23,574 bases of DNA, taken from the IMG/VR virus record IMGVR_UViG_3300029843_000030, one strand, 5' to 3'. The notes under the pieces were generated by a model, which saw nothing but the letters and a program-made list of their open reading frames with translations, was not told the origin of the DNA and ran no database searches. The DNA comes from a virus (taxonomy: Duplodnaviria > Heunggongvirae > Uroviricota > Caudoviricetes). The first letter of the stretch is position 1; each line of letters starts with the position of its first letter. This document shows, piece after piece, positions 21,936 through 22,467 of this stretch. Position numbers and translations under genes: made by a program.

Positions 21936-22240
21936 TTTATTCACAGGTGAGGTGGAGTGCGTGCGCCGGACACGGGTGAGCATCCGGCACTGACAGTTTA
22001 CTGAAAGGATATTTCCCTGAAAAGTCAGACCATAACGCGAAAGCGCACAGCGAGGTAGCTGGTTCATAGATAGCCTGTCGTTAAATTTTCGTCGACCGTG
22101 CGCTTCCGGTTGTGGCAATCCGCGAAATGGCGCGGCGGTAAGTATGGCGGGGTTATTCCTTCCCCCGTTGAGGACACCGGGTTGTCAGGTTGACCATACG
22201 CTTAAGTGACAACCCCGCTGCAACGCCCTCTGTTATCAAT

Positions 22241-22298
22241 TTTCTGGTGACGTTTGGCGGTATCAGTTTTACTCCGTGACTGCTCTGCCGCCCTTTTT
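22241..22298 (+). ncRNA. dicF: DicF small RNA (53-nt mature form plus U-tail)
   Basis: tttctggtgacgtttggcggtatcagttttactccgtgactgctctgccgccc followed by ttttt matches the remembered 53-nt DicF sequence. Lies ~170 nt upstream of the dicB-like gene on the same strand. Confidence 0.8.
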
Positions 22299-22302
22299 AA
22301 AG

Positions 22303-22450
22303 TGAATTTTGTGATGCGGTGAATGCGGCTGAGCGCACGCGGAACAGTTAAAACCAAAAACAGTGTTATGGGTGGATTCTCTGTATCCGGCGTTAATTGT
22401 TAACTGGTTAACGTCACCTGGAGGCACCAGGCACCGCATCACAAAATTCA
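22303..22450. repeat. Perfect 19-bp inverted repeat pair (TGAATTTTGTGATGCGGTG / CACCGCATCACAAAATTCA) enclosing ~110 bp, between dicF and dicB
   Basis: Arms at ~22303-22321 and ~22432-22450. Interior contains GTTAAC-TG-GTTAAC. Right arm ends 18 nt before the dicB Shine-Dalgarno/ATG. Confidence 0.6.
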
Positions 22451-22467
22451 TTGTTGAGGACGCGATA

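Follow-up and report, generated by a model that had tools for sequence, protein, structure and literature searches.

An inverted repeat between dicF and dicB closes a conserved, folded RNA of prophages with a likely relationship to STnc100/PasD

The dicF-dicB locus

From about position 21945 on, the window (the whole stretch of DNA analyzed, 23,574 nt, IMG/VR virus record IMGVR_UViG_3300029843_000030) is approximately 98% identical to the ydfC-dicF-dicB spacer of prophage Qin in Escherichia coli K-12, which identifies it by sequence as a Qin-type spacer. Similar DNA occurs in 4,719 of 5,426 complete E. coli genomes, at a median of two places per genome. The Rfam model of DicF (RF00039) matches positions 22242-22293 (+) over its full length (model positions 1-52) with 76.7 bits, above the gathering score of 48, and the seed is followed by the terminator hairpin; the 53-nt DicF annotated in K-12 (b1574) corresponds to 22241-22293. 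The downstream ORF starts with an ATG at 22468 and its product matches the Pfam family DicB with an E-value of 1.7e-37. The comparison with K-12, which a first-pass annotation of this DNA had recommended, confirmed that both sequences represent the same locus with the same DicF, for which a 190-nt RNase III-dependent species and a 72-nt species are reported in the literature. Two differences were seen: the window strain carries a perfect palindrome between dicF and dicB where K-12 has two wobble pairs, and the gene upstream is not ydfC. In its place, a gene for a 128-aa protein without Pfam match (21549-21935, +) adjoins the spacer.

A DUF1391 (YdfA-like) gene is present upstream of the spacer, and the late region on the opposite strand contains three tRNA genes, TerB and DUF3927 genes, two STnc100 copies and a sialate esterase gene. 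Judged by gene content, these surroundings fit a lambdoid prophage. The tRNA genes (11107-11356, −) are of the Met-CAT type, Arg-TCG and Arg-TCT, as they occur in late regions of lambdoid prophages of the Stx type. The record of Aeromonas phage AP1 (MT713136.1, 254 kb; 249906-250143) also contains the DicF-element stretch of E. coli with 98.9% identity, where it is probably an assembly chimera or a contamination.

The locus comprises the following features:

21936-22240 (+): untranslated structured part of the dicBF transcript upstream of DicF, precursor of the published 190-nt DicF species (approx. 98% K-12 identity from about 21945; fold z = −4.1)
22037-22109 (+): imperfect helix of 22037-22048 with 22098-22109, with two small hairpins inside (inverted repeat and fold)
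22179-22215 (+): 9-bp hairpin GGGTTGTCA/TGACAACCC, arms 22179-22187 and 22207-22215 (inverted-repeat search)
22241-22298 (+): DicF sRNA with terminator hairpin, then a U-tract (Rfam, 76.7 bits; K-12 b1574)
22301-22321 (+): 5′ arm of the closing helix P1, with a putative RNase III cut after approx. 22312 (inverted repeat, fold, conservation, published 72-nt DicF)
22325-22340 (+): hairpin H1 (GCGGC-UGAGC-GC-A-CGC), 99-100% of cells paired; 3 of 5 pairs vary on both sides across genera
22341-22388 (+): arm H2, whose base triplet GGA/UCC covaries and whose distal part is variable in length and sequence (variant comparison)
22389-22415 (+): hairpin H3 with GTTAAT/GTTAAC repeats and the loop UUAACUG; both-side changes in 10 of 10 pairs across genera
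22417-22431 (+): hairpin H4 (CCUGG-AGGCA-CCAGG) with invariant loop, abutting the 3′ arm of P1; 100% of cells paired
22432-22452 (+): 3′ arm of P1, with a putative second RNase III cut at approx. 22441-22443 (position expected from the 72-nt end for a 2-nt 3′ overhang)
22456-22656 (+): dicB, with RBS GAGGA at 22456-22460, CDS 22468-22653 and the stop codon to 22656 (Pfam DicB)

All + strand ORFs in the part upstream of DicF (21936-22240) have at most 33 aa. The 5′ end of the 190-nt RNase III-dependent DicF, calculated from its published size, falls at approx. 22104-22109 and, hence, in the 3′ arm of the upstream helix (22037-22109). According to our own reading of the sequence, the same helix precedes KilS in the K-12 prophage Rac, with a compensatory change of A-U to G-C and the same A/C mismatch. 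The 9-bp hairpin is located within the 190-nt precursor, approx. 25 nt upstream of the RNase E-generated 5′ end of DicF. By itself, it is barely beyond chance (about 0.1 expected). It recurs in DicF-type homologs with changes that are mostly G-U-compatible, is missing from KilS-type and some short variants, and sits in an indel block of approx. 100 nt.

DicF nt 8-17 (22248-22257) could form 10 pairs, one of them G-U, with codons 6-9 of dicB (22483-22492), at a site within a duplicated AAACGTTA(T/A)TAC motif (22472-22496). The core 8-mer of this pairing is at chance level for the region size, and the same dicB start is kept where the seeds differ. A complementarity of the DicF seed to the spacer (22246-22254 with 22410-22418) was dismissed as chance, being lost in loci with other seeds.

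The inverted repeat and its fold as RNA

All features listed in the first-pass annotation (DicF, a 9-bp hairpin, a 19-bp inverted repeat, GTTAAC palindromes and a gap of 18 nt to dicB) are present. The arms of the inverted repeat, 22303-22321 and 22432-22450, match at 19 of 19 positions and are separated by 110 nt; the right arm ends 18 nt before the dicB ATG. Only about 1e-6 perfect 19-mer inverted repeats are expected by chance in 600 nt. A search of the window for further copies of the arms, which had been proposed as well, returned none besides the two arms themselves (0.01 expected by chance). In RNA, the pairs G22302-U22451 and A22301-U22452 are added, resulting in a helix, P1, of 21 contiguous pairs (22301-22321 with 22432-22452). 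Structure prediction, likewise suggested earlier, yielded −66.7 kcal/mol for 22295-22475 (z = −6.1 compared to shuffled sequence) and −200.5 kcal/mol for the whole stretch 21936-22480 (z = −4.1). Both the minimum-energy and the centroid fold contain the 21-bp helix and four inner hairpins. The GTTAAC palindromes at 22399-22404 and 22407-22412, together with GTTAAT at 22392-22397, form stem and loop of a single hairpin, H3, whose three G-U pairs indicate that the + strand is the one that folds. The base triplet of H2 is found as GGA/UCC, GGC/GCC or GAC/GUC, and a U-A pair of H4 is replaced by G-C in the STnc100 and Klebsiella types. Based on these results, we conclude that the inverted repeat forms the stem which closes a conserved, folded RNA of prophages, a five-helix domain of approximately 150 nt. 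In the transcript of the dicBF operon, this domain follows the DicF terminator and precedes the RBS of dicB.

Several other candidate functions of the stretch were rejected. A conserved small ORF inside the element (22323-22403, 26 aa) is incompatible with element lengths of 103-129 nt and indels which are not multiples of three. A scan for an intrinsic terminator, a G+C-rich hairpin with a U-run after it, found none; the 3′ arm is followed by UUGUUGAGG. Scanning for an internal dicB promoter gave no promoter-like site on the + strand, and a sigma-54 promoter in the GGCAC repeats was dismissed by eye due to wrong spacing. In phages P1, P7, and D6 the element is part of a tRNA operon, and a tRNA-like element or a C4 antisense RNA (phage P1 c4-type) was therefore considered, but no such Rfam match was obtained in 21900-22700 at E ≤ 10.

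Conservation and covariation of the domain

In the viral-contig set, 116 occurrences of the element were reduced to 59 distinct variants. Standard pairs were found in 94.1% of the pair cells of these variants, compared to 33-42% when the partners were slid by 1-3 columns, and 16 of the 44 pairs show changes on both sides. A genome scan detected the domain in Citrobacter, Enterobacter, Klebsiella, Raoultella, Kosakonia, Lelliottia, Pantoea, Erwinia, and other genera. Among 74 distinct sequences from many genera of Enterobacterales, 92.1% of the cells are paired, a count inflated by fitting the alignment to the model, and both-side changes occur in 36 of 44 pairs. The covariation score of the 74 sequences is 0.437, in contrast to 0.123 for shuffled and at most 0.085 for slid partners. 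P1 arms range from 6 to 21 bp across relatives, and closing helices of 19-21 bp with very different sequences were found in Citrobacter, Lelliottia, Raoultella, and Klebsiella. The loops and junctions GAAU, ACAGUUAAA, UUAACUG, and AGGCA, on the other hand, are nearly invariant across many genera. In these comparisons, compensatory changes preserve the pairing of the domain in prophages throughout the Enterobacterales.

E. coli variants, including K-12, carry C/T differences in both arms in all four combinations, each of which leaves a G-U pair. Such a polymorphism pattern is what selection on an RNA would produce, not selection on a DNA palindrome. Further, the model scores 174 bits on the forward strand versus 31.5 bits on the reverse strand, which, together with the G-U pairs, indicates that the + strand is folded. 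Since pairing is kept via G-U wobbles and compensatory changes, the element can be regarded as RNA rather than as a DNA repeat.

Relation to STnc100/PasD

The prophage RNA STnc100 has been detected at the RNA level, was reported downstream of stx2 and has recently been linked to PasD. In a permissive Rfam scan of 801 nt, positions 22291-22500 matched STnc100 (RF02076) with 40.1 bits and an E-value of 3.9e-7, below the gathering score of 47. The alignment spans model positions 1-206, and the inverted repeat coincides with the outer helix of the model. The architecture of STnc100, i.e., an outer helix around four hairpins and the conserved motifs GGUGAAU and CACCnGGAGGCACCnGGCACC, is found in the element. 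The Rho-independent terminator hairpin which STnc100 has at its 3′ end (model positions approx. 170-206) is absent; the start of dicB is aligned there. To examine the relationship from the opposite side, a covariance model, R1, was built solely from dicB/kil-type elements. It recognizes both STnc100 copies of the window:

8995-9201 (−): STnc100 copy in the late region, Rfam 169.8 bits; R1 at 9049-9172 with 59.8 bits, E-value 3e-17
9479-9684 (−): second STnc100 copy, Rfam 135.6 bits; R1 at 9533-9655 with 45.1 bits, E-value 1e-12

These matches cover R1 positions 19-145, corresponding to the upper 8 pairs of P1 and all inner hairpins. The tandem copies follow the TerB and DUF3927 genes and precede the sialate O-acetylesterase gene (7789-8772). 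A weak third match of R1 between them (9312-9416, −; 10.4 bits, E-value 0.08) may be a decayed copy.

Element and STnc100/PasD share the outer helix, four inner hairpins, the sequences of junctions and loops, and the prophage setting. They differ in that the element scores below the family threshold, has no 3′ terminator hairpin and has a P1 of 21 bp, 13 pairs longer than the 8 (+3) bp of STnc100. Moreover, the element belongs to the early-left operon, where it follows the terminator of an sRNA and precedes an ORF, whereas STnc100 is encoded in the late region. Model matches in both directions thus identify the dicF-dicB element as a likely divergent relative of the prophage RNA family STnc100/PasD.

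The same element precedes other genes

The same element, ending exactly at the stem base, precedes dicB, kilR (in Rac-type phages and K-12 Rac), tciA (a TerB-family gene; phages P1/P7 and D6), a Rha/Ash antirepressor gene, and other small ORFs. The distance to the downstream RBS is 12-30 nt, and in 79 of the 116 occurrences a terminator-like G+C stem with a U-run is found directly upstream. In one group of loci, a KilS-like sRNA instead follows the element. In the phage collection, the element is present in every record with DicF (22 of 22) and in every record with dicB (20 of 20), and its identity stays at 97-100% even in cases where that of DicB drops to 70%.

The KilS-kilR leader of prophage Rac (K-12 b4833 and b1352; Bar 2021, PMC8175672) has the same layout of an sRNA terminator, the element and a division-inhibitor gene. 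The sRNA and the gene are 175 nt apart, compared to 174 nt for DicF and dicB, and the elements are 80-91% identical. In contrast, the sRNA has another seed, KilR is unrelated to DicB, and P1 has a 1-nt bulge and extra wobble pairs. In K-12, KilS, element, and kilR occupy NC_000913.3 1418230-1418502 (2731-3003, −, of our locus L128), with a spacing that follows DicF-dicB nearly base for base. No mention of this parallel layout was found in the literature searched.

Further observations concern the neighborhood of the element. At least five different seeds on a similar terminator hairpin were seen in sRNAs preceding it (eight loci), as if they formed a family of DicF/KilS-like sRNAs whose seeds have been exchanged. 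A hairpin ACCACCGAGCCUGAAGUGGU (variant CCACCUCGCCUGAUGUGG) recurs 20-60 nt upstream of the element in four loci and in the viral ‘type D’ loci; its early-operon position suggests a nut/boxB-like site. Arrays of three or four element copies within a few kb are present in prophages of Superficieibacter and Enterobacter and in phage D6 (five loci; in D6, locus L003, at 878-988, 2482-2639, and 3679-3794). In one viral contig, a gene for a 283-aa Ash/Rha-family antirepressor-like protein is inserted exactly between the stem base and the RBS of dicB, and this insertion point marks the stem base as a mosaic boundary.

RNase III processing

The first-pass annotation had considered the long stem as a possible RNase III site separating DicF from the dicB mRNA. 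This reading, which in substance is already published, is supported by the uninterrupted 21-bp helix, by the end of the 72-nt DicF inside the 5′ arm and by an rnc-dependent position in the spacer. With 21 contiguous, conserved and covarying pairs, P1 has the size of an RNase III substrate (approx. 20-22 bp of continuous dsRNA). According to papers citing Faubladier 1990, the 5′ end of DicF is generated by RNase E and the 190-nt species depends on RNase III, which also processes the full-length mRNA of the operon to create a second 3′ end and, thereby, the 72-nt DicF. Counting 72 nt from the annotated 5′ end at 22241 leads to a 3′ end at approx. 22312, halfway along the 5′ arm, with 12 pairs of the helix below this point and 9 above it; the position reflects the RNA size quoted in later papers and not a mapped nucleotide. 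In vivo, the two base pairs between staggered RNase III cuts are, as a rule, paired and include G-C or C-G. For putative cuts after 22312 or 22313, the pairs in between include such a G-C pair (G22311-C22442 and G22313-C22440).

An RNA-seq table comparing wild type and rnc mutant contains K-12 position 1649470 (‘dicF-dicB’, corresponding to window position 22329) with 26 reads in the mutant and 0 in the wild type. However, this position is 8 nt past the top of the 5′ arm, the reads number only 26, and higher expression of the operon in the mutant could explain them. The same table lists K-12 position 1418510, which adjoins the 5′ end of KilS and the upstream helix on the KilS side.

The 8 bp that would remain after the cut equal the P1 common to the whole family, suggesting that the extension is an excision or processing stem. 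In many family members, P1 has only 6-9 bp and is too short for RNase III; the core would, therefore, have a function of its own, and the long stem may be an add-on to it.

The following scheme proceeds from what is observed, namely the structure, the conservation and covariation, the family relationship, and the modular position before different small genes. Upon read-through of the DicF terminator, the long P1 helix would form, and RNase III would cut both of its strands near the middle, after approx. 22312 and approx. 22441-22443. Of the three resulting products, one would be the 72-nt DicF known from the literature, another a core RNA of approx. 128 nt in which P1 is reduced to the 8 bp common to the family, and the third a dicB mRNA whose leader is as short as 25-27 nt (approx. 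26 nt). For dicB expression, our guess is that cleavage would act as activation or uncoupling, as in the lambda N leader. Taken as a whole, the explanation of P1 as an RNase III-processed closing helix of an STnc100/PasD-related domain between DicF and dicB is, in our view, probably correct.

Translation of dicB

Control of dicB translation by the stem had also been proposed in the first-pass annotation, and an unmasking of the RBS upon cleavage is predicted for dicB itself but not consistently for its homologs. In equilibrium folds, the GAGG of the dicB RBS is unpaired with a probability of approx. 0.05 in the read-through RNA and approx. 0.95 after a cut at 22443; cleavage is, thus, predicted to unmask the RBS. 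A conserved masking was rejected, as the same calculation on homologs from kilR, Citrobacter, Lelliottia, Raoultella, and C. braakii showed no consistent pattern. We therefore give the predicted unmasking little weight and regard stem control of dicB translation as no more than possible.

The closest functional analog is, by resemblance rather than homology, the leader of the lambda N gene. It belongs likewise to an early-left operon, and a long helix around a branched region of approx. 90 nt ends approx. 14 nt before the RBS. The site between nutL and the RBS of N is a known target of RNase III, and cleavage there affects translation of N. Homology was rejected: R1 reaches 9.9 bits and an E-value of 0.015, although this is its best match in lambda 33000-36000.

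Alternative explanations

Two alternatives accept the folded RNA and assign it another role. The helix could act in cis as a translational gate without any cleavage, in which pairing between the tail of the DicF terminator and GAGG extends the stem, hides the dicB RBS and keeps the toxic DicB off in read-through transcripts. The low accessibility of GAGG in the read-through RNA speaks for such a gate, as do the position of the element, always 12-30 nt from an RBS, and the fact that in 51 of the 116 occurrences further pairing, with one irregularity, would lengthen the stem to 27-30 pairs and include the RBS region. The extension consists, however, of weak A-U/G-U pairs which compete with the terminator hairpin, and the masking and unmasking, known from equilibrium folds only, is inconsistent in the homologs mentioned; we judge a gate of this kind to be quite unlikely. 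Alternatively, the enclosed domain may be the functional product, i.e., a trans-acting or protein-binding RNA of the STnc100/PasD type, and the long stem just an excision signal comparable to rRNA processing stems. This would agree with the near-invariance of loops and junctions over many genera, with the homology to STnc100, itself detected as RNA, with the identity of the 8 bp left after the putative cut and the core P1 of the family, and with the fold of the excised 128-nt RNA, which stays the same. Nevertheless, that fold beats shuffled sequences only modestly (z = −2.3), the K-12 annotation contains no RNA species from the dicF-dicB spacer, and wild-type reads at K-12 1649470 are zero. 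We regard this version as doubtful, if somewhat less so than the gate.

The two remaining alternatives place the function of the repeat in the DNA. According to the first-pass annotation, it might be a MITE-like insertion. In this case, a small mobile element of the non-autonomous kind would have inserted between dicF and dicB. As expected for a MITE, terminal inverted repeats that match perfectly over 19 bp (19 of 19 positions) flank approx. 110 bp, and the element is found beside different genes and in several copies per genome. In being short, non-coding, multicopy, and bounded by inverted repeats, it indeed resembles bacterial MITEs and intergenic repeats such as ERIC/IRU, RSA, and REP/BIME. 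Unlike these, it is syntenic, confined to prophage operons and covaries as RNA. The flanks AAAG/TTGT are not repeated, so that there is no target-site duplication, and none of the 22 DicF loci and 20 dicB loci of the phage collection is an empty site. The element is invariably encoded on the strand that is transcribed, preceded by a terminator or nut-like hairpin and followed by an RBS, with arms of 6-21 bp that covary in sequence. Its G-U-only polymorphisms would be mismatches in DNA, and its interior holds conserved, covarying hairpins. The MITE proposal thus failed, and we consider it very improbable. A palindrome acting as DNA, be it an operator, a recombination site or a cruciform, would be in line with the perfect repeat of the window strain and the tandem GTTAAC motifs. 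Yet the palindrome is broken in K-12 and many variants with retention of RNA wobble pairs, the G-U pairs are strand-asymmetric, as reflected in the forward and reverse scores, and GTTAAC is explained by H3 with its covarying pairs; such a palindrome is almost certainly not the explanation.

Discussion

The locus and its processing by RNase III were already known. In contrast, the ties of its RNA to STnc100 and to the kilR and tciA leaders appear to be undescribed in the literature searched. In the papers on the dicBF locus covered by the search, neither the dicF-dicB helix nor the enclosed domain or its relatives are described, and the terms ‘stem’, ‘hairpin’, and ‘inverted repeat’ were not found.

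DicB and KilR are division-blocking prophage toxins and DicF is a model sRNA, but how their expression is kept low and released is only partly understood. A folded RNA shared by the leaders of dicB and kilR provides a testable handle on post-transcriptional control of such toxins. For STnc100/PasD, so far treated as trans-acting sRNAs, a role in cis or in processing is suggested. More tentatively, and with more doubt than conviction, we propose that the STnc100/PasD-type ‘sRNAs’ and the leaders of dicB, kilR, and phage P1 tciA form one widespread family of RNA modules in Enterobacterales prophages. Its early-left members would have gained a long RNase III stem which couples an Hfq-dependent sRNA (DicF/KilS) to a toxic small protein (DicB/KilR), and cleavage would separate the two, release the core and set the amount of division inhibitor. 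If this is true, prophage-induced filamentation would be tied to the RNase III activity of the cell.
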